A stretch of 64,000 nucleotides of DNA from Dictyostelium discoideum (taxonomy: Eukaryota). The position numbers were made by a program, and so were the translations under genes. Below, piece after piece: positions 20,900-50,253 of the stretch; positions within the stretch are counted from its first letter, which is position 1, and each line of letters opens with the position of its first letter. The stretch spans positions 5,632,001-5,696,000 of the forward strand of contig CM000152.2 in NCBI GenBank assembly GCA_000004695.1, written 5' to 3'. The notes under the pieces are model-generated. The model worked only from the letters and a program-made list of their open reading frames with translations. It was not told where the DNA came from and searched no databases.

Positions 20900-20918
20900 A
20901 ATAAATTTTCATAAAAAT

Positions 20919-26261: not shown

Positions 26262-26966
26262 TTATAATTTTGATTCAAATAATTTTAATCTACTTGCAAA
26301 ACCAATTGTTTTTTCAAGTAATTCTTTGGAAGCATTTTTATACATTTCTTCTTTTAAAGAACCAAAAGTAATTCTGTCTTTTCCTTTTGTATGTAATAAT
26401 TCTGCTAATTCAACAGATTTCTCTAATATATCAGTACATGATTTATCAACTAATTGTAATTTCTCTGCTTCTTTACCTCCAAATCTTTTACCAGTTAAAA
26501 CAACATCTCTAAATATATTTGAATTTGTAATTTTACATCTATTTTTTTTAATAATAATAAAAAAAAAAAAAAATATTATTAGTTTATTATTTTTTATTTT
26601 TTTTTTAAAAATAAAAAATTTTAATTTAAACTTACTGTAAAATAGCATTCATACCAGGAGTTAATGGAATATGAATATCAATTTCAGGTAAACAAAAGAA
26701 ACCTTTATCAGATTTCATTATTCTGTAGTCATGTGCCATTGAAAACATAGCACCACCCGCGAATGAATGACCATTGATACATGAGATGGTTGGAATTGGG
26801 AATACTAATATTCTTTGTAATAATGCATGAAATCTAAATACAAATTCTTGGAAATTCTTTGCACCTCTTGGTAATGCCCAATCTAAATCTAATCCTAATG
26901 AATAAAATTTTGGACTAATTGATGTTGTAATTAAACATGATGCATTTTCACAACTATTTTTTTAAA

Positions 26967-27008
<42 letters not shown>

Positions 27009-27241
27009 AAAATTAAAATTAAAATTATTTATTATAATTATTATTAATTATAAATTAAAAAGAAAAATAAATAAAAAAAAACAAACCTTTCAACATAATC
27101 TAATGATTTGTGAAAATGACCAAGATTATCATCATTAAATCTATTTTCATTATCATTTAAAGTAAGCAAGAAAATATCTTCATTTGATTCTAATTGTTCA
27201 ACATAAAAATTACCAAATTCTTTTTTGTTAATCCACTTCAT
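26262..27241 (-). CDS. Enoyl-CoA hydratase/isomerase (crotonase-fold) protein with a C-terminal PTS1 (SKL), probably a peroxisomal enoyl-CoA delta-isomerase. Three exons: 27241..27079, about 26959..26642, 26539..26262.
   Basis: Exon 2 translates to ...LDLDWALPRGAKNFQEFVF...ISCINGHSFAGGAMFSMAHDYRIM, the crotonase oxyanion-hole region. Minus-strand donors are GTTTGT and GTAAGT, with AATAG acceptors. The protein ends ...RLKLFESKL*. Confidence 0.75.
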
Positions 27242-27333
27242 CCTTTTTTTTATTTTTTTATTTATTTATTTTATTAAATTCTAATTGTTTTTTTATGGTT
27301 TACAAATTTTAATTAAATTTTTGAAATTTTCTG

Positions 27334-27384
<51 letters not shown>

Positions 27385-28191
27385 ATTATAAAAAAAAAAA
27401 AAAAATTTCTCACAACATGTTGCAATTTATTAACTTTTTTAGTTTGGTTGTGTTGTGATGTTAAAAAAAAAATAAAAAAAATAACAAAATAAAATAATAT
27501 CAAAATTTAGTCATTAAAAAAAAGATAATAAAAAAAAAGTAAAAAAAAAAAAAAAAAAATAATAATTAATTAATAAAAAAATATATTATAAAATATATAA
27601 ATAGATAATTAATTAATTTTATTGGGATCGAACTCCAAAAATATATTTTTTTTTTTTTTGATTACACCAAAAGGCGGTTTTAAAATTAAAAAAAAAAAAT
27701 AAAATTTTTTATTATTTTTTTTTTTTTTGTATTTTTTTTTTTTTTTTTTTATTTTAAACTTTCAGACTCAAAAAAAGAAATCGATTTTTTTTTTTTTCCA
27801 CACATTTTTTTTTTTTTTTTTTTTACCGGGGCGTGTAAATATACAAATAATGATGTTTTAAATAAATTTACAATTAAACTATATATATATAAAAAATAAA
27901 AATAAAATTTTATAAAATCAACGATAAATTACAGAAAACAATAGTTTTTACAAAGCGACACATTCAAAAACACTAATATTTTTTTTTTTTTTAAAATTAT
28001 CGGAGAAAATTATTTATATTTTTTTTTTATTCATTAAAATTTTTTTTTTTTTTTTTTTTTAAAAATACAATATAATAATAATTGTAATAATAATAAAAAT
28101 AGTAATAGTAATAGTAATAGTAATATTAATAAATAATAAATAATAATATAAAGTAATAATCAATATATTTAAAAAAAAAAAAAAGAAAAAA

Positions 28192-31100
28192 ATGGCAGGA
28201 GGACCAATCGGAGCAACAGCTATTTGGGAGAATAGTTTAAAAGTTGCATTGATATGGGGTATTTTTATGTTAATTTCATCATTAACGATTATATTAGTTA
28301 GAATATTAAGAAAGAATAAACCACCCGAACTTAAACTATCACTTCGTTCAAAATTGGAGATATATTTAGCATACACTCATATTGGTGAAATGATAGAATT
28401 TATTCAAGTAGCTTTTAGTATATTTTCAGTATTACTATTTATATATGGTACATACATAACATCAAAAGAACCACCAACATTTTATTTAGTATTAGAAGTT
28501 GTTTTAGTTTTCTTTTTCATTTTACATTGGTCTTTAGATTTTTTCATTTCAAAGGATAAGTAAGTTAATATAATTATATATTTTATTTAAAACCAATAAT
28601 AATAATAATAAAAAATAATAATAATAATAATAATAATAAACATCATCATCATTATTATAGATTAAGATATTTATTTTCATTCTTTTCAATAGTTGATATG
28701 ATTTGTGTTTTACCAATTTTAATTGATATTCAAAGTGGTGATTTTAAAAATCTATTAAATACATTTCAATTCCTAAGAGTTTTAAGAGTAATTAGAATTT
28801 TAAGATTACAAAGAGTACTTCATTATTTTAAAAATGGTTAGTATTTATAAAATAATTAAATAGATATATATAAATGATAGATGATTGAATTTAATTTAGT
28901 ATTATATACAATACTAATTAAATAAATGATGATGATGATGATTGTTATTTTAGAGGTTACAAAATATACATTTAAAGCATTTATAGTTGTATTTTCATTT
29001 ATTATGGTATTAGCAGGATTTTATATGAATGTTGAAGTTCATCCATCAGGAACTCCATTACAATTTCATGAAACTGTTTACTTTTTAGTAATTACATTGG
29101 CAACTGTTGGTTATGGCGATATTTATCCAACTACTGCTTTAGGTCAAATTACAATCACTCTAGCATTAACGATTGGTGCTGGTGTTTTAATTCCATATCA
29201 TATATCAAAATTAATGGAAAAATTACAACAAGATTCTCGTATGTACACCTCTTTTTTTTTATTTTTTTTTATTTTTTTTTCATTTTTTTTTTATACTTGT
29301 ACTAATAATTAAAAAAAAAAAAAAAAAAAAAAGCATTTTTAAGAAATTTATCATCATCATCAATTACAGGACATGTTATATTATGTGGTGATATAACAAT
29401 ATCACATTTATTAGATTTTTTATCAGAGTTTTATCATGAAAGATATGGAAAATTAAAGAAAGAATTGGTAATATTATCACCAAAAGCACCAGATGATAGA
29501 ATTAAAGCATTATTACTTCACCCATTTTATAAGAATCGTTTAATCTATTTAAAGGGATCACCATTATTTGAACATGATTTACAACGTACTAAAATTTCAA
29601 AAGCAGATTCAGTATTTATAACATTACCATCATCTTGGAATTCAGCAGATACAGATAATATTTTATGTTCATATGCTGTAAAAAGTCAATATAAAAATTT
29701 GAAAATATTTTCACATTTAATTTCATCGAAAAATAAGAATAAATCACCATTTTTAAAAGGATCGATTTATGTTGAAGAATTTAGATGTGCAATGTTGGCA
29801 CAATCAATAGTGTGTCCAGGATATAATATTTTATTTTCAAATTTATTTACAAGTAGAACTATACCAACGATGGTATCACATAAATGGTTAACAGAGTATT
29901 ATTATGGTACCAATCATTCGATTTACATAATAAAAGTACCAGAGTTTTTAGTTGGTGAACAGTTGACAGATGTTATACTTTCAATGTATTTTGGTAATGG
30001 TAGTTTATTGATTGGTATAATGGAGCCACAAATTGTAGTCTCTGTTTGTTCTCAACAAGGTCCAAGTTTAACTTCAAGTGGTACCTATATACCAACATCA
30101 CAAAAACCAACAACCTTACCACCTAAATTTCATTTAAATCCACCTCAAACTACAATTTTAACAATAGATATGCAATTGGTATTAATATCACATACTGTAA
30201 ATTTAACAAGTAAACATTCATCAAGAGCAGAGAAAAGACAACAACAAAAACAACAAGAAATTCAAAAAAGAAAAAAAATTCAAATTAATAGTATTGGTGG
30301 TGAATATGATGATGAAAATACTGATGATACTGATTTTCAATCAATGAATGAAGTTTTAAATTTTAATTCAAATTTAACAAATAATAATTTAAATAATAGT
30401 TTAACAAATAATAATAATAATTTAAATAATAATGATGATGATTATAATAATAATAATTTTATAATTAAAATTTATAAAAAAATTAATCAATTTTTTAATA
30501 AATTAGCAGTACCAGATTTAGAATTATTAATTAATGAAGTTGAACAACAAAATAATCAAGAAACTAAAGATCAAGCTATGAATGAATCATTAAAAACTTT
30601 TATAGTTTCAAATAAATCAAAAAATAAAGATAATAATGGTAGTGGTGGTAATGGTAGTGGTGGTAATGGATTTAGTCGTGGTGGATCATCAATGAATTTT
30701 AGAAATAATAGTATGACTGGATTTGGATCATTATCAAGTCCACAATCAATTGATGAGAATCTTGATCAATCAATTATGGAATTCAATAGAGAACACGAAG
30801 AAGAGGAATTAACCTCTAAGGAATTAATAAAATCATTATGTCTTTCAGAATATAATGGTGATTGGATTGCTCTATTAAGTGATATTAGTTCACAAAAAAC
30901 ATCAAATCCAAAGACAGAGGAGATTTTAGAAAGAATTCGATTGGTAATTGATAAACATTCTCTAATGACTTTTACAACTCATGGAAAATTTGGTAAAGGT
31001 AAAAAAGGTTCAAAAAATTCAATGAAAGGTCATATGTTAATCATTTGTAAATCGTTGAGAGGTTTAGATTTATTTTTACATCATTTACGTTTACCTTATA

Positions 31101-31954
31101 TTTCATCGATTAAAACAAATACAATGGCTAAATCTGGTGTTCAACCAATCGTTGTACTCTATAAAGATGAACCACAAGATGAGAGTTGGTTTTCAACTGT
31201 TAAAACGTTACCATTGATTGCATTTATTAAAGGTTCATCATCGAATAATGTCGATCTTGATAAATGTGGTGCAAAAAATGCTGAAACCATTATAATCACT
31301 TCGGATCCATATTATGATCAATCCAATTTATCATCGGCTCAAGAGAATTTAGTAGATTCATTCACATTGATGTCCTATGTCGACGTAATCAAGGTTAATA
31401 GAATCGCAAAGATAACCGTTGAATTAGTACATGAACCAAATATTAGATTTTTAGAGGATAAGAAAATTCAAGCATGTGGTTCCAATAAAAGATTTCATAC
31501 TTATTTACAAGCTAATCAAGAGAAAACTTTCTTAAAACCAGAGTTTTTCTCAACTCCACATTATGCATCGGGTGGTGTTATAACATTCACTGTATTGGAT
31601 TCATTAACTTGTCAAGCTCATAATAATCATTTGATAAAAGATGTCGCCCATGAATTGGCATTTGGTGTAAATGGTTTATCACAATCTTATTCAACATTTG
31701 GTTTATCAAGTTGTGTTAATCAAGATTCAAAATGTTTTAGTAGATTAATTGGTATACCTGCAATGTTTCATGGTAGATCCTATGGTGAAGTTTTAAAATA
31801 CTTTTTACAACAAAAAAATCTTTTGGTTTTAGGTCTTTATCGTTCAAAAATACCAATGAGTGCTCCTGTTGATTATATTTATACTTGTCCACCACCAACT
31901 TGTATTTTACATGAAGGTGATCAAGCTTATGTTTTATCAAATTCACCAATTTAA
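28192..31954 (+). CDS. BK/Slo-like voltage- and Ca-activated K+ channel alpha subunit (6TM, pore, RCK). Exons 28192..28556, 28660..28837, 28952..29238, 29332..31954.
   Basis: The S4-like segment is FQFLRVLRVIRILRLQRVLHYF. The pore has the K+ selectivity filter TLATVGYGDIYP. The long C-terminus has an RCK/TrkA-N-like start, GHVILCGDITISHLLDFLSEF. Donors are GTAAGT, GTTAGT and GTATGT; acceptors are TAG, TTTAG and AAAAAG. All four exons are in phase. Confidence 0.85.
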
Positions 31955-32215
31955 TAAAATAAAAAATAAAAAATAAAAAAAAAAAAAAAAAAAAAATAAA
32001 AATAAATAACCAATTCAACAACAAATAATAAATAATAAATAAAATAAAAAAAAAAAAAGAATATAAAATTTATATTTTTTTTTTTTTAAAAAAAAGCAAT
32101 AAATAAATAAAAAAAAATAAAAAAAAGAAATAATTAAAAATTACTTTTTACCTTTTTTAAAAATTAATTAATAGTATTTTTTAGTTTTTTTTTTTTTATT
32201 ATTTTTTTATTATTT

Positions 32216-33836
32216 TTAAAGTCTTTTTTTAATAATGAAATTATTAATTGGTGGTTGATAAGCAATACCAAAAGAACCTATATCATTTAATGGTTCTAAA
32301 GTTGGATTAATAAATTGATAACGATTTATTAAAGTTGCTAAAACTGTAAAAATTTCACAATCTGCCAATGATTTACCAACACAATCTCTAACACCAGTAC
32401 CAAAATGAACTAAATTTGTTTGACCACCACCAAACATATTATTTGAACCAGTTTCAATGAATCTTTCAGGTATAAATGATTTTGACATTGGAAATGTTTT
32501 TTCACATAAATGAGTAGAGAAAACATTTTGAATGATTTGAGTACCTTTAGCTATTTTATAACCTTCAATTTCAACATCTTCACTTGTAATATGTGGTAAA
32601 CCTATTAAAATAACAGAATATAATCTATAAACTTCTTTCATAACTAATGAAAGATATGGTATTGATGAACGATATAAACTATGTCTAATTACAATTTCAT
32701 CATGACCATCGTCACTTTTTTTAAGATTATTTTTAATTTCATTAAAAAGCTTTTCTTGACAATTTGAATTATTTACAAGAGCAATTAATGTAAAAATTGT
32801 TGAATTTGAAGTTGAATCTACACCAGCTAAAAAAACATCAACACATGTACTAACAACACTAGTCCAACTAATTTTACCATTATGATATTCTTTTAATAAT
32901 TTACCAATTATTGTTCCATCATCATCATCATCATCATCTTCATTTTGTTGTTGTTTCTGTTGTTTTTGTAGTTGTTTATTATTTTTATAATTTTCAATTA
33001 ATTTATTTAAATGATCACATAAAATTGGATAAAATTTAAAAAATTTGTTTTGTTTATAAAATGGTTTTAAAATTGGAATAAAGTCAGACATAATTGGATT
33101 ACCACCATAATGTAAAAATTCGATAATAACATCTACAATATCTTGATTACTTTTGTCTTGATATGAATTATTTATAGTACCAAATAGAAAACGTAATATT
33201 ATATTTAAGGAAAATAATTTAAAATACATATTTAATGAAAATGGTAAACCATCTTGACAATGTTTATCTAATTGTTTACAAAGATTTTCACATTCTAAAA
33301 CTATATGATTTTCCATTTTTTTTATTTTATTAGATGTGATTTCTGTTAAAATTAATTTTTTTAATGTTGAATGAATTTCATCATTTGATCCAATTAAATT
33401 TTTACATCCATTGGCCTCAAATCTACTCAAATGTTGAAATCTTGGTGCAAATATTTGAGAATTTTCAATAAATGCTTTTTTAAATATTGGATAGCCAGTG
33501 AAAACAACTGTTTCAATATTACCTAATCTTATTGAATAAATTACTCCATACTTTTCATACCATTTTTGAAATTGAATATGTGGATCCTTATTAATTTGAA
33601 GTAAATTTCCAAAAATTGGTAATCTAATTGGTCCTGGTATTTTTGAATTAATTTTACTAATTCTATTATTCTTTATTTTTTAAAATAATAATTAATAATA
33701 GTAATGATAGTAACAATAAATAATAATAAATAATATTTTTTTTTTTTTTTTTTTTTTTTAATATTGAATTTATTACATTTTTAAAAAAAATTATTAATGA
33801 TATTATTAATATTAAAATTGAAATATATAAATTCAT
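32216..33836 (-). CDS. Cytochrome P450 monooxygenase, copy 1 of a tandem array. Exons 33836..33777 and 33670..32216.
   Basis: The heme-binding loop is FGGGQTNLVHFGTGVRDCVGKSLA. The EXXR/PERF region is ...IPERFIETG. The N-terminal TM anchor exon MNLYISILILIISLIIFFKN joins through a GTAATA donor and an AAAG acceptor to NNRISKINSKIPGPIRLPIFGNL, the Pro-rich hinge. Confidence 0.85.
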
Positions 33837-33961
33837 TTTTTTTTTTTTTTTATTATATATTTAAATTCAATAAATAATATATGATTAATTTAAAAAAAAG
33901 AATTTATAGAAATGAACAAGAAAAAAAAATTAAATAAAAAATAAAAAAAAAAATAAATAAT

Positions 33962-33995
<34 letters not shown>

Positions 33996-34462
33996 TGGGG
34001 AGATAGAAGGGTTTATTTTATACATGATAACATTTATTACCTTAAATGGAATTATTTTTTAAAAATTTTAATTGGTAGTTTAATTTTTTTTTTTTTTTTT
34101 ATGTTAATGAATAATTATGAATTAAATAATTTTTAAATTTGTTTTTTTTAGATTTTTTTTTTTTTTTTTTATTATTTTTTTTATTTGAATGAAATGGCAT
34201 AAAAAAAAAAAAGTTATAAGACAATTTTCACTAAATTACTCTTCTTTAAAACATTTTTTTTTGTTTATTTAATTAATTTATTTTTAAAAAGTTATTTGAT
34301 TGAATATTAAATAACAATTAACTTGTTTGCGCCAAAATTTTTTTTTTTATTTTTTTAATTTTTGTTATCCTATTTTTAACTTTTATTTTTTTTTATTTTT
34401 TTTTTATTTTTATTTTTTTACTTTTTCTATTTTTTTTTAATTTTTTTTTTTTAACTCCCGCG

Positions 34463-35050
34463 ATGGAAAGAATTCTTTCCATTTCTTTAACACCTGCAAT
34501 GGAAAGAATTCTTTCACTTGAGCAAGAAGCTCAATTAATTCAATGGATTGAAGAAGAGATTGATCTAAACCAAACAGTCACAAAAGATCGTATTAAAAAA
34601 CGTGTTTGCACTATGTTCACTGAAAGAGTTGGCAAACCACGTGATTCTGTTAGTGATGACTGGTGGCTCAATTTTCGTAATCGACATCCAGAGATTAAAT
34701 TAAAGTTAGTGAAATTCCAAGACCTTAAACGTCCAGATGCCGCTAAAACTCTCGATAAAGCTGGTTTTTGGGAGCGTGCATGGGAAATTATAGAAAGAAA
34801 TCGTATTAAACCACAAAATGTGGTTAATATCGATGAAAAGGGTATATTATTTACAAAATCAAATTTCAAGGTAATATTTACATATAAATATTAAAATTAA
34901 TTGCAACACCACCCGAATTGAGGGAACGACTAATAGCACTTCTTGAAATACCAAAGAGATTTGCAATTTCTTGTTGAGTGGAACTATTGTCTTTCTGTGT
35001 ATACATTTTCACAGCGGCTGTCAGATTTACTCCTGAAAGAATTGAACAAA
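34463..35050. mobile_element. Rearranged remnant of a pogo/Tigger-type (CENP-B-like) DNA transposase. The HTH_Tc5 plus DDE_1 start is on the plus strand (34463..34870). The psq/CENPB N-terminal HTH is on the minus strand (about 35050..34895).
   Basis: The plus ORF reads ...DDWWLNFRNRHPEIKLKLVKFQDLKRPDAAK...VVNIDEKGILF, the Tc5 HTH followed by N.DE.G, the first DDE_1 motif. The minus-strand translation at 34895..35050 is ...NLTAAVKMYTQKDNSSTQQEIANLFGISRSAISRSLNSGG, a psq-type HTH that normally precedes the Tc5 HTH on the same strand. The DDE core is missing. Confidence 0.5.
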
Positions 35051-36013
35051 TGTCAAATTCTATTTAAAAATAAAATGTTTTTTTTTATTTATTATTTGCA
35101 CAGTTGTAATATTATAAATATATTAAAATGAAAAAAAAATAAAAAATTTGCCATTTTAAGTTGTCCTTAGTTTGTCATTTATTGAAAAAAAAAATTAAAA
35201 AAAAAATTATTTAATCTGCAATCTATAAAAAATTTCAAAAAAACACAAACGTGCAAAACAGGGCGGGTGTAATTTTTTTTTTTCTCAACTATTGGAATTG
35301 CCATATCTCCTATATTCAGATTAACAAGAAATAAAAAAAATTTAAGTGTTGTTAAATAAATATTTTTTTTTTTTTTTTTTTTTTTAAAAAATTTGTTTGT
35401 TATTTAAAATTTTATTATCATCTTCATTAACATTGTTTTTAATTAATTAATCTGAAAACTATATGATTTAAGTTCGTAATATGCTATTTTTTTTTTTTTA
35501 AATCTTTTTCAAGTTTTTTATTATTTTTCTTTTCTTTTTTTTTTTTCTTTTTTTTTCTTATTTTTAAATTATTTTTTTTTTTTTTTTTTTTTTTTTAGAT
35601 ATTTGACTCTATTTTTATTATTGGTTAGAGAAAACAATTTAACATAAAATTTTTTAATTAATATTAATTTCAGATAAAAAAGAAAAAAAAAAAATGTTCA
35701 CAGAAGTTATTGTATTATTTATTTTTTTATTTTATTATTTTCATTATTAAAACTTTTTTTTTCTTGTTTATTTATTTTTTTATTATTTTTTTTCCAATTC
35801 TATTATTATAAAACTCCTTTTTATTATATTTTTGTGTACCTTAATAATAAATCACATACATTTACACAAACATACAATTTAATTAAAAAAATTGGTCAAA
35901 AAAAAAAAAAAAAAAATGATCACATTCATTCCATTTAACTATTTCCAAGAAAAAAAAGGAAAATTTTGTTTATTTATTTAGTTATTTTTTTATTTTTTTA
36001 TATAAATATAAAT

Positions 36014-37465
36014 TTATTTTCTTTTTTTAATAATAAAATAATTATCAGGTGATTGATTTGCTAAACCAATTATACCATTTTCATTTAATGGTTTTGAAAG
36101 AACAGGATTTAAAAATTGATATCTATTAATAAGTGTTCCTAATACTGTAAATAATTCACAATCAACAACATTTTTACCAATACAATCTCTACTACCTGCA
36201 CCAAATTGTACTAAATTTGTTGTACCACCACCAAACATAAAATTATTACCACTATCTGAAAATCTTTCAGGATTAAAATCATTTGGTGATTTAAAGAAAT
36301 CTTTTGATTTATGAGATAAGAAAATATTTTTAAATACTTGAGTACCTTTTGAAATTTTATAACCATTTATTTCCATATCTTGAGTTGTAATAATTGGTAA
36401 ACCTAATAAAGCAACTGGAAAATTTCTATAAGTTTCTTTCATTACCATTGAAAGATATGGTATTGATAAACGATATAAACTATGTTTTAAAATAATTAAA
36501 TCATCAATATTATTATTATTATTATTTTTTAATAATTCATTTTTAATTTCATTATAAAGTTTTTCTTGACAATTTGGATTATTAATTAATGCAATTAATG
36601 AAAAATTTAATGAATCTGAAACAGTATCAGTACCACCAACAGTTAAATCAACACAAGTACCAACTAAATTATCCCATGTTATTTTACCATTTTTAAATTC
36701 TTTAAATAATTTTAAAAATATTGTTATATTATTTTCATCATTATCATCATCATAATTATTTTCAATGAATTTTAATTTTAAATTATTTATAATATTTTCA
36801 ATTAAAATTATTAATTTTTTATAAATTTTTAAAAATTTATTTTGATTAATATTTTCAAAATATTTTACTAATGGTATAAAATCAGAAATTATTGGATCAC
36901 CAGCACCTTCAACTAATTCAAGTATTAAATTTATAATTTCAATTATTTTTTCATTATCATATTGATAATTTAAACCAAATAAAAATCTAAATATAATATT
37001 TAATGAAAATAATTTACCATAAAATTTAAATTTAAATGGTAAACCAGATTCACAATGGTTATCTAAATGTTTACATAGTTTTTCACATTCTAAAATTATA
37101 TAATTTTCTTGTTTTTTTAATTTTGTTAATGTCATTTCTGATAATATAATCTTTTTTAAATTTGAATGTGTTTCACCATTGGTAAATGTTAAATCTGAAC
37201 AATTATTAAATTGAATTTTACTACGATATTCATATCTTTTTTGAAAAACATTTGAATTATCAATAAATGATTTCTTTATAATTGGATAACCTGTTAAAAT
37301 TATTGTTTCAATATTACCCATTCTAATTCTATAAATTGGTCCATATTTTTTATACCATTTTTTAAAAACTTTATTTGGATTATTTTTTAATTGATGTAAA
37401 TTACCAATAATTGGTAAACCAATTGGTCCTGGTATTTTTGAATTAATTTTATTAATTCTATTTTT
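36014..37465 (-). CDS. Cytochrome P450 monooxygenase, copy 2. The main exon is given; the 5' TM-anchor exon upstream, around 37560..37650, is not confidently resolved.
   Basis: The heme loop is FGGGTTNLVQFGAGSRDCIGKNVV and the PERF motif is NPERFSDSG. A minus-strand TTTCAG acceptor at 37466 precedes KNRINKINSKIPGPIGLPIIGNL. Overall the gene is colinear with copy 1 at roughly 50% identity. An upstream exon ending FIFEK followed by GTAATA is visible, but I found no in-frame ATG. Confidence 0.75.
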   Translation of the reverse strand, partial: KNRINKINSKIPGPIGLPIIGNLHQLKNNPNKVFKKWYKKYGPIYRIRMGNIETIILTGYPIIKKSFIDNSNVFQKRYEYRSKIQFNNCSDLTFTNGETHSNLKKIILSEMTLTKLKKQENYIILECEKLCKHLDNHCESGLPFKFKFYGKLFSLNIIFRFLFGLNYQYDNEKIIEIINLILELVEGAGDPIISDFIPLVKYFENINQNKFLKIYKKLIILIENIINNLKLKFIENNYDDDNDENNITIFLKLFKEFKNGKITWDNLVGTCVDLTVGGTDTVSDSLNFSLIALINNPNCQEKLYNEIKNELLKNNNNNNIDDLIILKHSLYRLSIPYLSMVMKETYRNFPVALLGLPIITTQDMEINGYKISKGTQVFKNIFLSHKSKDFFKSPNDFNPERFSDSGNNFMFGGGTTNLVQFGAGSRDCIGKNVVDCELFTVLGTLINRYQFLNPVLSKPLNENGIIGLANQSPDNYFIIKKRK

Positions 37466-37468
37466 CTG

Positions 37469-37512
<44 letters not shown>

Positions 37513-37659
37513 TTAAAAACTATAAAAATTTAAAAAAAAAAAAAAAAATTATTTTTTATTACTTTTTCAAATATAAATAAAGTTAAAATTATTATAATAA
37601 TAATTAAAATTAATTTCTTTTTTTTTTTTAAATTAATAACATAAAAAAATCAAAATTTT

Positions 37660-37694
<35 letters not shown>

Positions 37695-37713
37695 ATTTAT
37701 GAAAAAATTTAAC

Positions 37714-37744
<31 letters not shown>

Positions 37745-37799
37745 ATAATAAAATTAAATAAATTAAACCAATTTTTAATATTTTTATTTATTTTAACCC

Positions 37800-37833
<34 letters not shown>

Positions 37834-37929
37834 GTAAATCTATATCTAAAATTATAAATAAACCACTAACCTACTATTTAAATTAATTTTTTATTTATTT
37901 TCTTTTTTTAATTAAAAATTTAACATTTG

Positions 37930-38383
37930 GTGGATGAAGAATAAGACTTAATTTACCTTTATCATTTAAAGGTATTGAAGGTTTTGGATTTTAAAATTCA
38001 TATCTATTAATTAGAGTTGCTAATAATGTAAAAATTTCACTGGTTGCTAAAGATTTACCAATACAATCTCTATTTCCAAGACCAAATTGTACCATATTTG
38101 TATCACCACAACCATAAATAAATTTATTACCACTTTCAATATTTCTTTCAGGTATAAAATGATTTGGTAATTTAAAAAAATCTTCATGTCTATGTGATTG
38201 ATAAAAATTTTTAATAATTTGAGTACCTTTTTTAATTTTAAAACCATCAATTTCAATATCATTATCTATTAAAACTGGTAAACCTAATACACCAACAGGA
38301 TATAATCTATAAACTTCTTTCATAATCATTGAAGGGTAAGTAATTGATGAACTATAATTACTATTTTTAATAATTAATAAATC

Positions 38384-38426
<43 letters not shown>

Positions 38427-38465
38427 TTATTATTTTTATTATTATTATTATTATTTAGAGATTCT

Positions 38466-38560
<95 letters not shown>

Positions 38561-39250
38561 TAGAGATTCTTCATTATTATTATTATTATTAAAAGATTCC
38601 TCACTACTATTATTATTAATTAATGATTTTTGAATTTCATTATAAAGTTTTTCTTGACAACTTTGATTATTTGTTCATAGAATTAATGAAAATATAAGTG
38701 TATCACTACTTGTATCCGTACCACCAATACAAAGATCACAAATATATTATCCCAATTTAATAAACCATTATTAAATTCATCTAATAATTTCACAACTATT
38801 GATTGATTTTTATTTTTATCAATTATACCATTTTCAATTTGATTTTCCAAATAGTAAACAAAGAATTATATATAATGAAAAATGTTTTAAAAAATCATAA
38901 ATTGATATACCATCACCAAGATGTAGAATTGATTCATCATTTATTGTTTTATCAATATTATTACATAATTTTTCAACTTGTAATAAAATATAATTTTCAA
39001 TTATTTTAACTTTTGTTTAAGTTAATTCTGAATGAATTATTTTTCTTAATAATTTATATTGTTCACCATTACATATTAATAAATTTGAATTATTATTCAT
39101 TTTAATTTTACTTGAAAATTGATATCTATTTGAAAAAATTGTTGGATAATCTTTAATTGATCTTTTCATAATTGGATAACCAGTTAAAACTACAGTTTCA
39201 ATAGATCCAAGTTTAATTTTATAAATTGGACCAAATTTTTCATACCATAA
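37930..39250 (-). pseudogene. Cytochrome P450 pseudogene, copy 3 of the array.
   Basis: The C-terminal ORF is intact (heme loop YGCGDTNMVQFGLGNRDCIGKSLA) but ends RYEF* at a TAA where the paralogs read RYQF(L/I)NP. A (AAT)n expansion of about 250 bp (38385..38575), encoding roughly 80 Asn, lies inside the K-helix region. Upstream homology (38650..39250) contains an in-frame stop (TGTTCATAG) and a deletion causing a frameshift relative to copy 2. Confidence 0.7.
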
Positions 39251-39251
39251 C

Positions 39252-39298
<47 letters not shown>

Positions 39299-40332
39299 AA
39301 ATTGAATTACTTTTTTTTATTATATTTCAAAAAGTGGTCAATATCTATATTTGAATCTATACTTCAATAAATTAATATATTTATTATTTAAATAAAACAG
39401 TTTTAAAACCTCTTTTCCCAAACTATTGGTGGTTTTAAAAAAAAAAAAAAAAAAAAAATTAATTTTTTTTTTAATTTTATTTTCCCACTAAGACTTTTTT
39501 TTGAAAATAATAAATAATTAATAATTTGAGAGATAAAAATCTATTGATATAAGGGAATTATAGATTTTGATATAGGGTTTTATTTTTTTTTATTTTTTTT
39601 TTTTTTTTTTATTTTTTTTTTTTATATAAAATTAAATTATATATTTTTTAATATTAATGGTTTAGAATATCAAACCTATTTTAAGAGGCAAAGTAATTAT
39701 GAAATATATAATTTCATAATTACTCATCATGATATTTGCCAAACTCTTCCCAAATTTAATGTGATGGCAATATTGATCATAATAAATAAAGGAACATACA
39801 ATTAAAAAAAAAACATTAGTTTAATATTTTTTTAAACCAAATTGATAATCATAGTTTATCAACATTAAAGCAAGTAAACTATAATTAATAGTTTTATATA
39901 TGAATTTTAATGTATACAAACACACGAATGTTGCAAATCTTGAATCAAAATATATAAAACTAAAAAATTATTATTATAATTGTTGTTTGGTTATTTCTTT
40001 ATTTCTAAACATATACTCAATTAATAACTAATAAATTGTAGAAATAAAAGAAAATTGTTGTAGGGAATTTTCAATAAAATTTCACTACAGTAGCGTAGTG
40101 AATTTTATTATTTAATTTCACTACAGTAGCGTAGTGAAAAAAAAAAATCACTGACCCTAAATTTTTTTTTTTTCAAAAAACAAATAAAGTTTATTAAATT
40201 ATTATCTTTTATTTGATTATTAGTTCTATATAAGTTTTTTTATTTTTTTTTTTTTTTATTTTATTTTTTTTTTTTTTTATTTTATTTTTTTTTTTTTTTT
40301 TGCGCCAAAACTTTTTTTTTTTTTCCCCAACA

Positions 40333-40367
<35 letters not shown>

Positions 40368-40586
40368 TTTCATTTTCCCAAAATGAAACAAGATAAAATA
40401 AATGAAATTATAAATTATTTAAAATTTATTGAAGATAATAATTTTGAAAATACTAAACATAAAAATTATAAATTTTTACATGATGAGTAAATATTTTTCC
40501 TTACAATAACACAATCATTTTTTAAATTCTGACCAATAAAAAACAGAAACAGAAAAGAAAAATTATTTAGAATTGAAAAAAAAGTC

Positions 40587-42703
40587 ATGAATTGTGGCGG
40601 AGATAGAAATATATCAAAAGAAGTGTGTTTAGAAGTAATTAATGATTATAGAATGGTATCACTCTGGGAAGAAATGCATAAAGGTCATATAGGAAGAGAT
40701 GCAACCTATGGGAACTACAAGACTAAATATTATAATATGGGATTGTATTCTTTTGTATCTGATGCAGTAGATACGTGTGACATTTGCCAACGAAATAGAA
40801 TAAAAGGTTTGGTATCAATCATTTTTATATGATGTTTTGTAACTTTTATATTAAAACTCTTTTAATAATTTAAATAAATTAATAGGTATAACAAAGGATT
40901 TTGCTCCAATTGTAGATACCGAGGAATACTCAAGATTGGTTTATGATTTAACATCAATTAAAGGTGAACATAAAGAAAAAGTTACATACGATGATGATAA
41001 TGAAAAGATACTAACTAAACTAGATGATCTTATCCAATATGACTCTGTACAACCGTACGACACCGATGTTGTTTACATTATTCTATGCATAGATTCTTTT
41101 ACAAAATTTGCTACTGGAAGGTATTTATTTTTTATTTATTAATTTATTAGTTTTCTTTTTTTATTTTAATTATCATTTATTTTTTAGATGTTTGACAACA
41201 AAGAGAACAGTTCCCATATACAATTTTTTGGCTCTCACGTACTTTGGCAAACCTGTGAAAGTATGGCACTGCGATAATGGACGTGAATTTAAAAACAAAG
41301 TCCAAAAAGAATTCCTAAAACTTTTTCCAGGCTCCAAGTCAGCACATGGAGCTCCTCGTACACCAACAACTCAAGGTATGGTAGAAAGATTGAATCGAAC
41401 TATCAAGGAGAGGATCTCAAAATTAAAACAACAAGAGTATGATATTGTGAACAATATAAATTATCGATATGTTTATTAATTAATCATTTATAAATAAATT
41501 TTAGTTTTCTTGATGGTACTTCTAGGTCTCTTTCTGAACTATTAAAACAAGCTTTGTATGATTACAATAATACAAAAACAAGAACAATTAAAATGACACC
41601 ATCTCAAGCTGTTGGTATTGTTCCTTTGTTTATTAATGTTCAATCAGAACAAGACTCTCAATCAATTGGTGTTTCAGATGTTTCAAAAGAAGAAAGAACA
41701 GCTATTATTCTTGAAAATCTCACAAGTTACCAAAATCAATGGAATTCAAAACCACCAAAGGGATTGAAAGTTGGTGATACTGTACTCTTTCTAGAAATTA
41801 AAAAAAATAATGTAAGTAATTAAAACATAAAGATTAATAATATATGAAACAGTAATAATTAACAAATTTTATATTTAATTCTAATAGAAAATATTGATTT
41901 TGTGTAAAATTCATAAGGTAATACAGGAAGACACTAAACAACTTTATAAACTTGAATTTTTGGAAGATGGAATCAATAGCCTTCAAAAAAAAGGTTTATA
42001 CTCTGGTTTTGTAGGAGGTAACAAGTTGGTTCTTTATAAACAATCAACAGTTGATATTTTTAGAACATCGCCAAACATACAAAAAGATATTGATTCTTTT
42101 ACTTCTGGTCTTTATTTAAATAATGATGGGAAAGTTATTGAATTTCTGGTTCAGTTTATTAAAAATCTTGGTAAGGATTTATCCAATTTCAACTTGCATC
42201 AATTGGTAACACAAAATGATCCATTTAGGGTTTTGGAAGATGCTCTTAACAATCCATCAAATATTCCACCTATCATTAACGATAATCCATTTCAACACAA
42301 ACTCAATAATGAAATGGAACAAGAAGAAATACTCCCATTTTTAAATAATAATCCAACAGCGCCAAATTTAATGAATTGTTTGAGAAAGGATATGAATTTA
42401 AAAGAAATAGTACCACCAATACCTCAAGTGCAAATAATACCATCGTATACTATACCACAATCTGGTAGTGGTATAGTAACAACTGTTAAACGTCTCAGAG
42501 GCCGTCCTCATAAGATACCAATTGTTAATAAACCTCCTTTAAAATCACATTCTAAACCATCCAAATCACCTCTCAAATCACCATCCATTTCACCTTCCAA
42601 TTCACCATTTAAATCACCATTTAAATCACCTTCCAAATCACCATTTAAATCACCTCACAGCAAAGAAAAATGCACCTTTAAAGCAAATTTAAAGAAAAGT
42701 TGA
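40587..42703 (+). CDS. Integrase (HHCC zinc finger, DDE core, C-terminal domain, AT-hook/SPKK tail) of the transposon. At least 5 exons: about 40587..40804, 40873..41127, 41188..41444, 41505..41813, 41888..42703.
   Basis: The HHCC region reads EEMHKGHIGRDATY...CDICQRN. The DDE residues are in CIDSFTKF, CDNGREF and HGAPRTPTTQGMVERLNRTIKE, the last matching the signature integrase H.....P.TQG..ER.N. The post-DDE motif is LYDYNNTKTRTIKMTPSQAV. The C-terminal tail has an AT-hook (KRLRGRPHK) and repeated (S/K)PxKSP units. Donors are GTATTT, GTATGA and GTAAGT, paired with T-rich ...AG acceptors. Confidence 0.75.
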
Positions 42704-43900
42704 TTTAAATTGGATTTAAATTGAATTTAAAGCCGCGTTTAAAAAATTCATTTTTAAGGTAATTTTTAAGGTAATTTTTAAGATATTTAAAAATGCCTTT
42801 AAAATTTGCTTTAAAATAAATTTTTAAGCAATTTTAAAGGTGATTTTAAAGGTGATTTTAAAGGTGATTTTTAAGGTAATTTTTAAGATAATTTTTAAGA
42901 TATTTAAAAATACCTTTAAAATTTATTTTAAATTAATTTTAAATAGGATTTAAAGTAGATTAAAAGTAGATTTAAAGTGAATTTAAATTTCCTTTAAACA
43001 TAAATTTAAGGTTTTTAATAAAAAAGATCTAATTTTAGCACAAAAAAATGGGGATAAAATATTCTATCATTTTTAAATTTTTCATCAAAGCAATCAAATG
43101 GTGTAATGGTTGATGAGACTACCCTTTGATAGAGGGTCGGGGGATCGAATCCCTTTTGGGTAATTTTTGAAAAATTAAAAAAAAATTTTAAAAAATTTAT
43201 CCGTTAAATAACGGATTCGAACTCAGGACCTCGCTTTTAAAGCCATTAAAAAGGTAATTTTAAAGGTAATTTTAAAGGTAATTTTTAAGGTGATTTTAAA
43301 GTAACCTTAAAAATTACCTTTAAAATTACCTTTAAAATTACCTTTTTAATGGCTTTAAAAGCGAGGTCCTGAGTTCGAATCCGTTATTTAACGGATAAAT
43401 TTTTTAAAATTTTTTTTTTAATTTTTCAAAAATTACCAAAAGGGATTCGATCCCCCGACCCTCTATCAAAGGGTAGTCTCTTCAACCATTACACCATTTG
43501 ATTGCTTTGATGAAAAATTAAAAATGATTGATTTTTTTTTCCCCATTTTTTTGTTCTAAAATTAGATCTTTTTTATTAAAAACCTTAAATTTATGTTTAA
43601 AGGAAATTTAAATTCACTTTAAATCTACTTTAAATCTACTTTAAATCCTATTTAAAATTAATTTAAAATAAATTTTAAAGGTATTTTTAAATATCTTAAA
43701 AATTATCTTAAAAATTACCTTAAAAATCACCTTTAAAATCACCTTTAAAATCACCTTTAAAATTGCTTAAAAATTTATTTTAAAGCAAATTTTAAAGGCA
43801 TTTTTAAATATCTTAAAAATTACCTTAAAAATTACCTTAAAAATGAATTTTTTAAACGCGGCTTTAAATTCAATTTAAATCCAATTTAAATCCTTAAGCA
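42690..43900. repeat. Near-perfect palindrome (inverted repeat) of about 1.2 kb, centred near 43290, inside the transposon. It contains tandem 12-mers (AAAGGTAATTTT / AAAGGTGATTTT) and tRNA-like A-box/B-box modules.
   Basis: 42700..43290 is the reverse complement of 43290..43880 over hundreds of bases. Examples are TTGATTTAAATTGGATTTAAATTGAATTTAAAGCCGCGTTTAAAAAATTC versus its complement at 43830..43890, and CAAATGGTGTAATGGTTGATGAGACTACCCTTTGATAGAGGGTCGGGGGATCGAATCCCTTTTGGG versus its complement at 43440..43500. The centre is (GGTAATTTTAAA)n running into (TTAAAATTACC)n. Confidence 0.85.
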
Positions 43901-44933
43901 ATTAATTATTAAGCGATTAAGGTGTTTTCTTTGCTGTGTTCCAAATCACCATCCATTCACTTCCAATCACCATTAAATCCCTTCCAATTCACCTTTTAAA
44001 TCACCATTTAAATCACCTTCCAAATCACCATCAATAGGAAAAATCGTTAATGTGATCCTTCAAAAAAAGTTGCAAAAACAAAGTTAACAAGGACACAAAA
44101 ATTAGAACTTGATTTGGTTGCAATTAATAGAAGGGGGTATGGGGAAATTAGAAAATAAAAACAAGTGGCCAAATCAAAAAAACAAAAAAAACACAAATCA
44201 ACACAAAAAATTAAAAAAAAAAAAAAAAATTAAAAATTAAAAAAAAAAAAAAATTGAAAAAAATAAAAAAAAATTACATTTGTTAAAAAAAATAAAAAAA
44301 AATAAAAAAAAATAAAACTTAAAAAAAATTGAAAAAACAAAATAAAAAAAAAAAATTGAAAAAACAAAATAAAAAAAAATTTCAAAAAAAAAGAATGATC
44401 GAAGAATTAATAGATTCGATAAAACTCTTAAGAAATTTAGCCATTGAATATGGCAATGAAGAATAGTTAGATTCAGAGGAAAATTTGACTAAATTCCTCG
44501 AAAAAGCAGCCAAAGTACTATATGTAAATAGTGGTGATGCTTTAATCGTTAAAAATCCAAATATGATGTTAGAAGCATTAGAATTAAAATCAAAACAATT
44601 TCACCAACATTGTGTAAAAACTGTAATAGAAAACGAATTATATTTGGACTTTTTTGTATACAAAGGAAAATGCAAAAACATCAAATGCACCAGAGGTAAC
44701 AAAGCTAGAAAAAATTCAATTGTGTGCAGTGTTTACAGTGATATGGTAAATCAAGCAATTGAACAACTCAGGGAGTTAATAAAAATAAATTAATAAAAAT
44801 AAATTAAAAAAAAAAAAATTGAAAAAAAAAAAAAATTAACAATAATAATAAATAAAATAATAATTAAAACAAAAATAAAAATTACAATTTAATAAACAAA
44901 TAAAAATTGAAAAAAATTTAAAAAAAAAAATTG

Positions 44934-44973
<40 letters not shown>

Positions 44974-45311
44974 AACAATAATTATAATAAAAATAAATAA
45001 AATAATAATTAAAACAAAAAATAAAATTTCAATTTAATAAACTTTATTTGTTTTTTGAAAAAAAAAAAAATTTAAGGTCAGTGATTTTTTTTTTTCACTA
45101 CGCTACTGTAGTGAAATTAAATAATAAAATTCACTACGCTACTGTAGTGAAATTTTATGGAAAATTCCCTACAACAAAATAGTTAAGAACAATTAAAATA
45201 ATGATTTTTTTTAGTCTTGATTCAGCACATTGGTATTTTAATAGGTTTCTTTAAAAACGGAAAATAAAATTAAAAAAAAAATAAAAAAAAAATTAAGTGT
45301 GTTCCAGAAAG

Positions 45312-45614: not shown

Positions 45615-45651
<37 letters not shown>

Positions 45652-47950
45652 TATAATGGAATTGGGTTTGGAGTGTTCGGGTTATGCCATGATGTGTTGA
45701 AGTTGATTATTAATTGGTCTCTGTTATTTAATTTGTATATTGTTTCATTCCTTTCGATCTTCTTTATTAAAATGAATTTCTCTATTTTAATTAAGTTGGT
45801 TAGTTCTTTTTCAATTAATGTTGGATCAAATGAGGGTGGAGATTTAGATTCGTCTTGATTGAATAGTTTGTGACAAATTATTCTCCATAGTTGATGTATA
45901 ATTATGCCGATTAAATTTGGGTAGATTCTTTCTTTTTTATTTGTTTTGCTAATATCTAGTGAATTGAGATCCCAATTTCTGATCTTGAAGAATGAGAGAT
46001 TGTTGAATGTTGAAATTATTATGTTTTCTATTTCTTTTACTTGCATACAGTCTATAAAAAGGTGAGTGTATGGGTCACGGATTATATTGTTACAGATTTT
46101 GCATGGTACGTTACGTTCATAGTTGATTCCAGGAAGTGACCTTGAGAAAAATCTGAATAGTGTATTTCTACCTTTTTGATGTGATATGTGGTTGATATGT
46201 TGGAAGATGGATGGTATGTTGATGTTATTTATTGAAATTAGATTTTTTTGTCCATCTGTTTTTCTTATTGATTTGTATTTGTGAGTGATTAACATGTTAT
46301 AGATTTCTTTAAGTTGAAGTGGCTTTTTGTTTTGACCTTTGATACAATCAGGTAGTGATTTTAGTTTATTGTGTTGTGGTGCAAAGTTGTTTCTAAAATC
46401 TTTCCATCTGTCTACCATCTCTCTTAATCCAATTGATATATATTTGCTGTTGCTGATTTGTTCCATATACCATTCTTGTAGTATGTTGCATGCTTTTATC
46501 TTGATAATGTGTAATAATCTATTCATGTTCCAAACTTTGAATGCTATTTGTCTGATACCTAAGTCCCACATCTTAATTCCACCTTCTTTCCAATCACCGT
46601 ATGCTCTATCCATTGTCATTAATGTTCTATATTTATGTTCTTCTGTGTATGTATTTTTAATTGCGGAGAAGAGGAACCATTTAATGATATTGTTTAGTTC
46701 AGTAATGTGTGATTCATTTAGTGAGTCTAGATATTGATGGTAGGATAATCTCGATAGCGCATATGTTTTGACAATTGTCATCTTTGCTCTTATTGTAGTT
46801 GCTTGACTTTTCCAATTGTTTAAGCTATCTTTGATTGAGTTGATGATTGATGTGATTTTTGAATTGAGGCCCACTTTCGTGAAATTGAGACCCAAGTATC
46901 TTTCTGGAGCTTCACTAATCTTAAATGGGAGGTTTGGTGGTATATTACCAATGCATATCATAACAGTTTTCTCTTGATTAAGTTTTGAAGATGTACCTAG
47001 ACAGTAGTTGTTGATTTTATCCAATACTAATTTTAATTCTTCTGCTGAGTTGTTGAAAGTTGACATATCATCTGCGAATGCTGTTAGCTTGATTCTTTTC
47101 TGGTCTGATAATTTAAATCCTTTAATTTCGTTTTCTTTAAGTATATCAATTAGTAGTGCTTCCATTACAAGTGCAAATATTGTTGGTGATAATGGATCTC
47201 CTTGTTTTGTGCCTCTGTTAACTGTAATGTGTCCCACCAGGAAGTCATTTATCTTGATCTTATTCGTTGTTTCTTTTAATAGATTCATTATTAATTCTAC
47301 TATCGTTTTTGGTATGCCAATGTGGCTCAATGTTCTTCTGATACTTTTGTGGCTAATTGAGTCGAAAGCTTTGTTGAAATCGAAGAATGTGATTAACGTA
47401 GTACTGTTTCTTGATTTGTTTGCTCTTTCGATTACCTCCTTCATTATTTGAATATTATCTTGGATGTAACGATTTGGAACAAACCCATTTTGAAATTTGT
47501 TTATTATTTTCTTTGTAACTGCAAGTAAACGGTTGTTGATGATCTTACTTAATAGTTTGTAGTCCGTATTGAGTAGAGTAATTGGTCTTCTATTAGCTAT
47601 TTGTAGTTCATCTCCTTTCTTGAATAGTGTTGTGATAAATCCTTCTTTGAATTTTGGATTGATTTCTTTTTGATTAGTTAATGTATCATTAAATACTTTT
47701 GCTAAGATTGTTGAAAGTGATGCAGAGTGGTTTCTATATAATGCAGCATTGATTCCATCTAGTCCTGGAGATTTGTGTGGATTAGAATTTTTAATTGCAT
47801 TATTGACTTCTTTTGGTGTGATTGCACTATCTAATGATAGTCTGGAAATGTATTGTTTGTCCACTATCCATTTATCCAATAGTTCCCTATTTTTTGATTA
47901 TTGATTTAGTTAAACTGAACATATAAACAATGTAATGCATCAAAACACAA
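45613..47950 (-). mobile_element. 5'-truncated non-LTR (LINE, TRE/L1-like) retrotransposon copy. It has an RT domain, a C-terminal Cys/His motif and a 3' poly(A).
   Basis: The 742-aa ORF has no ATG; it opens right after a stop and uses TTG in the track. It begins within the RT fingers: FDFNKAFDSISH, QGDPLSPTIF, FADDMSTF. It ends with CKICNNIIRDPYTHLFIDC. About 35 T on the plus strand (45613..45648) abut the stop, which is poly(A) on the element strand. There is no endonuclease or ORF1. The 5' end lies less than 80 bp downstream of tRNA-Ser and in the same orientation. Confidence 0.75.
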
Positions 47951-47956
47951 AAGATT

Positions 47957-48052
47957 CGACGCCTGCAGGATTTGAACCTGCGCCCCCGAAGGGATTGAAT
48001 TACTCTTTTATATGATTCGAGTCCAACTCATTAACCACTCTGACAAAGCGTC
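47957..48052 (-). tRNA. tRNA-Ser (anticodon CGA), class II, with a long variable arm and an intron of about 15 nt after position 37.
   Basis: The minus strand reads GACGCTTTGTCAGAGTGGTTAATGAGTTGGACTCGAA[tcatataaaagagta]ATTCAATCCCTTCGGGGGCGCAGGTTCAAATCCTGCAGGCGTC-G. The acceptor stem is GACGCTT/AGGCGTC. The anticodon stem is TTGGA/TTCAA with loop C-U-C-G-A-A. The variable-arm hairpin is CCC-TTCG-GGG. The T-arm is GCAGG-TTCAAAT-CCTGC. Confidence 0.8.
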
Positions 48053-48178: not shown

Positions 48179-48514
48179 TTTAACTGTTTTAATTCTATTT
48201 AAATTATATATTACCTTTTTTGATAATTAAATAAGAATTTTTTAAATTAATTTTTTTTTTATATTTTAAATATTTTGTAAATTTTTTGGATGTTTGTGAT
48301 TTTTGTATATTTTATACTTTCATTTTGGGTGGGTTCAGTTCCTTAATTCGAAGGATCAAAATAAACAAAATCATCTCTAGGAACCTCAAAAAGTTCAATG
48401 GAACACATCATATAAAACAATACTCTTCCTAAAAAAATGAAATTTGAAAGATTACAATGGAATTATGACTATTTAAATACTTTTTTTATTATTATTATTA
48501 TTTTTTTATTATTT

Positions 48515-49436
48515 TCATTTTAATATTTTCAATTTTTTTTCAAAGAATTCTTGATATGTTTCAGATGGAAATGAACCGGCAGAGAGCTTATCTAAACACT
48601 TCATCATGTAATTGAAAACAAGAGGGTTCCAGTCTTGTTGGCCCTTGGAAATTATTTGTTTATTTGATACATCAGTAGAGTTGAAACCTAAGCACACCAA
48701 TTCAATATTATTTTTAGTATAGCCTTTCTTGTTGTGGATCCTATTTACAGATAATTTGAAAACTCTATTATTTTCTCCAATATCACCGAGCTGATAGTGA
48801 ATTTGGCTCATCTGGTCTTCTTACAAATTTGGCCTTGGTAATGGCACATCTATCATCATTATTATCACATAGTTTTTCTAATGTTTCTCTTGTTAAACTA
48901 AATTTTCCATATTTTCCATTTTTTTATATGTTGATGGGATCTTTTGTTTGCATTATTTGAAATGTTACGCATAAAATAAGTGTTACCTCCTTTTGACCTG
49001 AATTATTAAAAAAAAAAAAAAAAAAAAAAAATTAAAAACTATAATAAGAATATGCGAAATAATAATAAAAAACTTACAAACACATTTTACATGTCAATAC
49101 ATTTTCTCTTTCATAATTCCATAATGGTTTATCTTGTAAACAACCTATACATTTTTTAAAAATATTAACATCACAATTCTTTAAAAGATCTTTGAAATTA
49201 TCCGATCTTTTAAAGGGAACTATTAATTCATCTTCACTTGAAATGTGTTTCAATTTAAGAAATGAATCTCTTGGATATTTAAAACAATGTTGAGTTATTC
49301 TATGATTAACATCAATATCATTATGATACAAAATACAATGGCCAATATAATTTACAGTAAAAATGTTACAACCAATACAATAACCATTTACTATTTCTGA
49401 ATTTTTTTTTCTTTTTTCAATTCTTCTTCCTCTCAA
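48515..49436 (-). pseudogene. Cys-rich N-terminal domain plus HNH (HNH_3-like) endonuclease-domain gene, apparently fragmented into three ORF segments in different frames.
   Basis: ORF 49074..49436 (MRGRRIEKRKKNSEIVNGYCIGCN...CIGCLQDKPLWNYERENVLTCKMCL) has several CxxC pairs. ORF 48515..48811 (...VNRIHNKKGYTKNNIELVCLGFNSTDV...) matches the HNH motif H-N-N with the N..L..C..CN pattern of phage and homing HNH_3 endonucleases. Between them lies a third open segment (...NTYFMRNISNNANKRSHQHIKKMENMENLVLTRETLEKLCDNNDDRCAITKAKFVRRPDEP) in another frame. I could not find a consistent GT...AG splice path that joins the pieces. Confidence 0.45.
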
Positions 49437-49621
49437 CCATTATTTTTATACATCTAACACAGGTTTCAAAAATTCAACTATAAAATGATGACGGTGAACG
49501 AAGTCTATTACAAAATTTACATATTATAAAACTTTTAAAACTTTTATAAATTGAAAGAAAAAAAAAAAAAAAAGATTAATAATTTTTATAAAATATAATA
49601 CTTCATTGATTAATTTTATAA

Positions 49622-50185
<564 letters not shown>

Positions 50186-50253
50186 TATAATAATAATAAA
50201 ATAGAAATAATATAATGGGAACCTAAGATTGAATGTGGAAATCAAAAAAGGAT

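Follow-up and report, generated by a model that had tools for sequence, protein, structure and literature searches.

A MITE-like element nested in a Dictyostelium Tdd-4 transposon and the probable misassembly of its long right arm

A near-perfect inverted repeat of about 1.2 kb in the genome of Dictyostelium discoideum (assembly GCA_000004695.1, contig CM000152.2, positions 5,632,001 to 5,696,000; this stretch of 64,000 nucleotides is referred to as the window) lies within a miniature inverted-repeat transposable element (MITE)-like element that is itself inserted into a copy of the DNA transposon Tdd-4. Comparison of the window with other assembled loci suggests, at a probability of roughly 0.7, that the long right arm of this repeat (~43340-43885) is an assembly artefact, formed by a misoriented read joined to the poor tail of another read. 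The right arm is read in this way because four observations come together: the orthologous locus of a near-isogenic strain carries a short form of the element, the outer junction of the arm is degraded, the arm carries the consensus alleles of the family, and its length is about that of one read.

The nested element, its family, and its Tdd-4 host

The nested structure is a member of a MITE-like, non-autonomous transposon family with terminal inverted repeats (TIRs), inserted into the 12-nt coding repeat in the 3′ part of the Tdd-4 open reading frame (ORF), close to its end, which it interrupts. Other D. discoideum loci were collected by way of Tdd-4 and cytochrome P450 proteins, and the ~80 kb of transposable element (TE)-rich DNA sampled contained eight family copies at 85-99% identity, 545-760 bp in length and with no ORF of 60 amino acids or more. 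The termini CACAGC(A/G)AAGAAAA... and ...TTTTCTT(T/C)GCTGTG bound every copy, whether in the window or at loci L001, L002, L004, and L006, and the copies share a common plan of one long arm, a self-complementary centre of ~84 nt, and a short right end of ~100 nt. A 2-bp target duplication was present in five of seven copies (TA in three, CA and CT in one each). At L004, the locus orthologous to the window, excision of the nested element together with exactly 2 bp (CT) leaves an unbroken 12-nt array and a 330-amino-acid Tdd-4 ORF ending in ...KSPSIGKIVNVIPSKKVAKTKLTRTQKLELDLVAINRRGYGEIRK, showing cut-and-paste insertion with a 2-bp duplication. Three marks of a MITE were found: TIRs on every copy, a target duplication of constant length that, once removed with the element, leaves the target restored, and a short, non-coding, multi-copy body. 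An apparent ~100-bp direct duplication around the insert was rejected, as it is the 12-nt repeat array of Tdd-4 itself, split in two by the insertion. The coding 12-mers of that array (AAATCACCWTTY, encoding KSPF/KSPS; 42546-42655) are ~73% complementary to the 12-mers of the nested element, AAAGGTGATTTT (42831-42894), and one family copy in L006 is also inserted beside a CACCTTTAAA motif; these two observations may point to a preferred target or to a common origin.

In its size (~0.55-0.76 kb), absence of an ORF, TIRs, and 2-bp duplication that is mostly TA, the nested element resembles MITEs of the Stowaway- or Tc1/mariner-like type, with TA duplications, and of the CACTA/Mirage type, with CAC... 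termini and 2-bp duplications. Subterminal short repeats, many near-identical copies, and nesting in other TEs are further points in common. It departs from them in that some of its duplications are CT or CA instead of TA, in having a tRNA-like piece in its interior, and in bearing a long arm on one side only. No autonomous partner with matching termini was identified; all that turned up were related non-coding elements with CACAGC termini (L002 10929 and 11209). These two elements (10929-11208 and 11209 onward, with termini CACAGCGGCGAAAATC... and CACAGCAAAGAAAAATGCACCTTTAAAGCC...) carry palindromic ACTTAATAAGTA-type arrays, one of them is inserted into a family copy, and they suggest that hairpin elements with CACAGC termini form a wider group. 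A pogo/Tc5-type transposase fragment in the window (34463-34894; HTH_Tnp_Tc5, 29 bits), situated between tandem P450 paralogues, was rejected as the autonomous partner since matching termini were not found.

The thug (thug-S/T) and DDT-S elements in the catalogue of Glockner et al. 2001 are reportedly low-abundance, multi-copy D. discoideum DNA elements. By description, the nested family, which has a strong central hairpin, is like them in being a multi-copy D. discoideum DNA element and is possibly one of them. Hairpin-derived small RNAs have been reported from thug-S (PMC4894637, PMC6161686, PMC5633606), and a search of the nested element for the published small RNAs in Table 2 of PMC4894637 found no occurrence. 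A one-mismatch match to one small RNA, miRNA-like_D4 (PMC4894637), lies at L006 7914-7935, ~170 bp beyond a family copy and near a chromosome end.

The host is a Tdd-4 copy whose TIRs, at 40055-40298 and 44934-45177, form a 244-nt inverted repeat with 81% identity. The original prediction had placed the palindrome inside a transposon, which was borne out, and had treated it as a feature of that transposon, which was not, as it belongs instead to the second, nested element. Published TDD-4 is a member of the Ginger2 group, 3,839 bp long with TIRs of ~260 bp (PMC2836005), and the 5,123 bp of the window copy less the 1,284-bp insert come to the same 3,839 bp, so that both the TIR and the net length agree with Tdd-4. 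Its integrase-like ORF is split by an intron, and the nearest protein is DDB_G0282919, which is listed as Tdd-4 (PMC12405889); homologues of the ORF product carry PF00665/PF17921, and one exon gave weak Pfam matches to rve_3 (20 bits) and rve (16.6 bits), both under the cut-offs. The window is AT-rich (~20% GC), its proteins match D. discoideum, and its lineage is NC4/AX. The insertion site, precisely at 40055/45177, is unoccupied in two wild D. discoideum isolates (L003 ~7512; L005 ~5700), and since this orthologous site lacks the whole of Tdd-4, the transposon is a polymorphic insertion.

Origin of the long right arm

As assembled, the inverted repeat is centred at 43297/43298, with arms of 596 nt (42702-43297) and 595 nt (43298-43892). 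It had been described as a perfect palindrome of 1.2 kb, and a global alignment of the left half with the reverse complement of the right half confirmed a near-perfect inverted repeat, though not a perfect one: nine substitutions and three one-base indels separate the arms (~98% identity), with six of these differences clustered at 43039-43075. Beyond the arms, a weaker inverted repeat runs to the element termini at 42656 (CACAGCAAAGAAAA) and 43939 (TTTTCTTTGCTGTG). The tandem 12-mers AAAGGTAATTTT / AAAGGTGATTTT are present, and the A-box, the anticodon-like hairpin, and the two B-box-like motifs were recovered where they had been predicted and are mirrored in the right arm; within the window, the 12-mers and each of these motifs are confined to the two arms.

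The orthologous locus L004 comes from GCA_054883475.1, among the Nanopore plus Illumina assemblies of PMC12745789. Because it is nearly identical to the window, we infer that it represents the AX2-214 laboratory strain, the window being the Sanger AX4 reference. Over 17.4 kb (window 25977-43339) the two differ by 5 substitutions and 15 homopolymer indels, 44060-48192 matches equally well, and, homopolymers aside, the whole of 25977-48192 is nearly identical between the assemblies except for 43340-44057. All 15 homopolymer differences have the longer run in the window and the shorter in L004, which fits Nanopore under-calling in L004. The L004 element, 759 bp long, follows the window through the left arm and the centre plus 42 nt and then continues in the canonical short right end, passing directly from 43339 to that end, so that ~545 nt of the right arm (43340-43885) are absent. 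The left arm is identical at the two loci and 93-99% identical to other copies. The short form is common to L002 18138-18897, three L006 copies, and two older L001 copies, and the palindrome, which the original prediction proposed to look for in other copies, was not recovered at the sampled loci, where none of the seven other family copies is a long palindrome.

The short form was taken as ancestral because its canonical right junction (14 nt, GCTTTAATTCAGGA) cannot arise by deletion from a palindrome. The converse, in which the long palindrome is ancestral and was collapsed at L004 by the Nanopore-based assembly, would draw on the homopolymer under-calls (15 of 15 indels shorter in L004), but it is extremely improbable: the right side of L004 agrees at every base with the right end typical of the family, which four other copies also have, and restores the Tdd-4 reading frame, and a collapse would not generate the canonical junction.

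Immediately to the right of the long arm, the window shows numerous dropped bases relative to L004 (Table 1), numbering 13, 7, 3, 3, 0, 0, and 1 per 25 nt from left to right across 43886-44057; for example, the canonical TTTAAAGCAAATTTAAATTT appears as TTAAGCAATTAATT. This density of errors, falling to the right, indicates the tail of a low-quality leftward read. The left arm and L004 share four private alleles (42962 A, 43039 C, 43158 GGG, and A9), at all of which the right arm instead shows the consensus of the family; the right arm was therefore not copied recently from this left arm and must derive from another copy. From the start of the centre at 43256 to the end of the arm at 43892 is 637 nt, which would be about one Sanger read. 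The self-complementary centre reads alike on both strands and may have permitted an overlap in the wrong orientation. An opposite-strand read of ~640 nt from another family copy would then have overlapped the centre in this way, and the misoriented read would have been linked to the poor-quality end of a read that ran in from the right.

Several points weigh against a misassembly. The right arm shares with this locus the allele GGATTCGAAC, absent from six other sampled copies, so that the donor copy must carry GGATTCGAAC too. Nested head-to-tail or head-to-head family members occur naturally (L006 8350-9333), the misassembly is inferred and not observed in the reads, and a real lineage-specific rearrangement is possible if the window and L004 represent different sub-lines. 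In such a rearrangement, the central hairpin would have triggered a fold-back or template switch after the split of the AX2 line, copying ~545 nt of inverted left arm from another family copy, and the palindrome would be a genuine, decades-old feature of one laboratory lineage. The palindrome is, after all, present in the sequence, its arms carry 12 differences rather than forming a perfect mirror, and family members insert into each other in inverted orientation. This origin is nonetheless unlikely, as the consensus alleles in the right arm demand two precise template switches with a non-allelic donor, the outer junction falls where the sequence is most degraded across the 22 kb compared, the arm is one read in length, and the form occurs in none of eight other copies or loci. 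An apparent head-to-head copy in L006 was also considered as a natural long palindrome and was rejected, as it is one copy inside the end of another, deleted copy.

With misassembly as the favoured explanation, the recombinogenic perfect palindrome of the original prediction is probably not biological, its long right arm being absent from the near-isogenic strain locus and adjoining degraded sequence. As assembled, the element resembles foldback elements and long palindromes in having two inverted arms of ~600 nt each, with no spacer between them and with tandem subrepeats making up part of their length. The true nested element differs from these in having a hairpin of only ~42 nt per side and a long second arm that is not reproduced elsewhere; independently reproducible arms, as expected of a genuine foldback element or long palindrome, were found neither in the orthologous L004 nor in seven other copies. 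Two ORFs from 43936-44196 had no match on record and were uninformative on the odd right-hand sequence.

The tRNA-like segment and possible TFIIIC binding

The segment in the left arm had been predicted to be tRNA-like without being a functional tRNA, and this assessment was upheld. Its full-length alignment to the Rfam tRNA model (43092-43162) scores 13.6 bits, compared with the RF00005 gathering score of 29 bits taken as the threshold for a functional tRNA; a 1.4-kb Rfam scan gave no tRNA match, and ARAGORN, run on the window at its default, 95%, and 90% thresholds, found nothing. The accompanying statement that the D-stem and T-stem do not pair was only partly right, since a weak full-length cloverleaf exists at this score and the sister copy at L001 9914-9985, which has one extra G, reaches 17 bits in Rfam tRNA and is called tRNA-Ile(gat) by ARAGORN. 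Where the T-stem/acceptor would form, the sequence contains a TTTT run. Across the palindrome, Rfam at gathering thresholds and at E<=10 returned only sub-threshold miRNA-like hairpins and the 13.6-bit tRNA match, the self-complementary centre giving miRNA-precursor-like hairpin matches that were all below thresholds, and these matches were treated as structural look-alikes.

The first B-box-like motif, GATCGAATC, misses the core GTTCRANNC at T54. The second had been called a perfect B box, and GTTCGAATC at 43214-43222 (minus strand) does fit the core; the family consensus, however, is GTTCGAAGC rather than GTTCGAATC, and this consensus also fits. Over the whole inverted motif the family consensus is GTTCGAAGCC, and among the copies only this locus has the 'perfect' GTTCGAATCC. 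The second motif looks like part of the variable-loop/T-arm region of the first module in inverted orientation, and there is imperfect hairpin pairing between the two. The window contains 14 matches to GTTCRANNC, compared with 6.1 expected by chance, and 16 matches to a loose A-box pattern, compared with 7.1 expected.

The element shares an A-box, an anticodon-like hairpin (U33/R37), and B-box-like motifs with tRNA genes, tRNA-derived short interspersed nuclear elements (SINEs), and extra-TFIIIC (ETC) sites, and it differs from tRNA genes in that its segment falls below the tRNA model threshold. A tRNA-derived SINE was rejected, as the module sits inside the element, ~440 nt from the left end, instead of forming a 5′ head, and both TIRs and a 2-bp duplication are present. 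Most simply, the segment is a decayed tRNA-derived or tRNA-resembling passenger of the family.

The modules were also proposed to be functional TFIIIC (ETC-like) or RNA polymerase III (pol III) sites, acting as insulators or as landing pads for the TRE retrotransposons. Judged from the DNA sequence, this is very unlikely. The A-box and B-box-like motifs do stand at tRNA-like spacing, the second fits the D. discoideum core, the module is kept in all full copies, one of which passes ARAGORN, and A/B-box sites of the ribosomal DNA element, which are not tRNA genes, can serve as TRE5-A targets (PMC5391098). Against this, the copies are 93-99% identical, so that retention of the module reflects their youth and not selection; the first B box breaks the core, and the TTTT run falls inside the would-be T-stem/acceptor. 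The core is also frequent by chance, with 4,545 sites in the genome, and solo B boxes are poor TRE5-A targets (both PMC5391098). No TRE related to that of the window was found beside the other sampled family copies, and the TRE of the window adjoins a real tRNA gene (47957-48052), which explains its presence. Should the module nonetheless be a live TFIIIC/pol III site, which we consider improbable to a high degree, a cut-and-paste mini-transposon would scatter factor sites and possible TRE landing pads.

This TRE belongs to a region on the minus strand (45651-48052) with a TRE3-like arrangement, in which a 5′-truncated non-long-terminal-repeat retrotransposon ORF (TRE at 45651-47879; RVT_1, 742 amino acids) lies ~78 bp downstream of the tRNA gene. 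The gene contains an intron, scores 46.5 bits in Rfam, and was missed by ARAGORN; the right end of Tdd-4 is ~470 bp from the retrotransposon ORF. Elsewhere in the window (20918-21032), tRNA-Lys(ctt) has a further B-box core ~32 bp downstream (GTTCAATTC at 21024), corresponding to the 'ex-B box' that Dictyostelium tRNA genes typically carry.

Mapped features, neighbouring loci, and significance

The features of the nested element, its host, and the family copies are collected in Table 1. Two further differences from the wild isolates were observed in the vicinity: window 48435-50188 is in the opposite orientation in two of them, and a P450 paralogue at ~37900-39260 that is pseudogene-like in the window is intact in wild isolates.

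Table 1 Positions of the nested element, its parts, its host transposon, and the sampled family copies (window coordinates unless a locus is named)
Feature	Position	Strand	Remarks
Tdd-4 (Ginger2-type) DNA transposon copy	40055-45177	+	5,123 bp; host of the nested element
Left half of Tdd-4 12-nt coding repeat, (S/F)KSP...	42546-42655	+	ends in left target-duplication copy CT (42654-42655)
Nested MITE-like non-autonomous TIR element, as assembled	42656-43939	+	1,284 bp; termini CACAGCAAAGAAAA... and ...TTTTCTTTGCTGTG, same as those bounding copies in L001, L002, L004, L006
Left arm (genuine long arm)	42702-43297	+	11-12-nt subrepeat arrays, tRNA-like segment, inverted B-box-like motif
Degenerate tRNA-like segment	43092-43162	+	full-length Rfam tRNA alignment, 13.6 bits; kept in all full copies
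A-box TGGTGTAATGG	43099-43109		
Anticodon-like hairpin ACCCT-TTGATAG-AGGGT	43121-43137		
First B-box-like motif GGATCGAATCC	43142-43152		
Inverted B-box-like motif GAGTTCGAATCC	43213-43224	-	overlaps hairpin CCGTTAAATAACGG (43201-43214)
Natural self-complementary centre	43256-43339	.	(AAAGGTAATTTT)n, centre, (AAAATTACCTTT)n; in all full copies
Right-arm part absent from L004	43340-43885	+	reverse complement of left arm with family-consensus alleles; suspected misoriented read
Mirrored B box	43373-43384		within 43340-43885
Mirrored tRNA-like segment	~43433-43503		within 43340-43885
Degraded sequence: canonical right end of element and resumed Tdd-4 repeat	43886-44057	+	27 dropped bases, 0 substitutions relative to L004
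Family copy	L002 18138-18897		760 bp; target duplication TA
Family copy	L006 6995-7741		full copy; target duplication TA
Family copy	L006 21035-20288		full copy; target duplication TA
Family copy	L006 9313-8595		inserted into end of another copy; target duplication CA
Family copy	L001 2630-2085		older, 545 bp; target duplication not clear
Family copy	L001 9738-10237		older, 545-bp type; target duplication not clear

A probable local misassembly, together with ~27 missing bases, inside a Tdd-4 copy bears on the evidence for the palindrome, on TE annotation, and on read mapping at this locus. With the headline palindrome set aside as most likely not biological, what remains is an ordinary MITE-like element in Tdd-4 with a decayed tRNA-like insert, and its comparison across loci documents a compact MITE-like family with CACAGC termini, a 2-bp duplication, a central hairpin, a tRNA-like insert, and nesting in other transposons. 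If the module of this family were found to bind TFIIIC, DNA transposons would be linked to the tRNA-gene-targeting biology of Dictyostelium retrotransposons.

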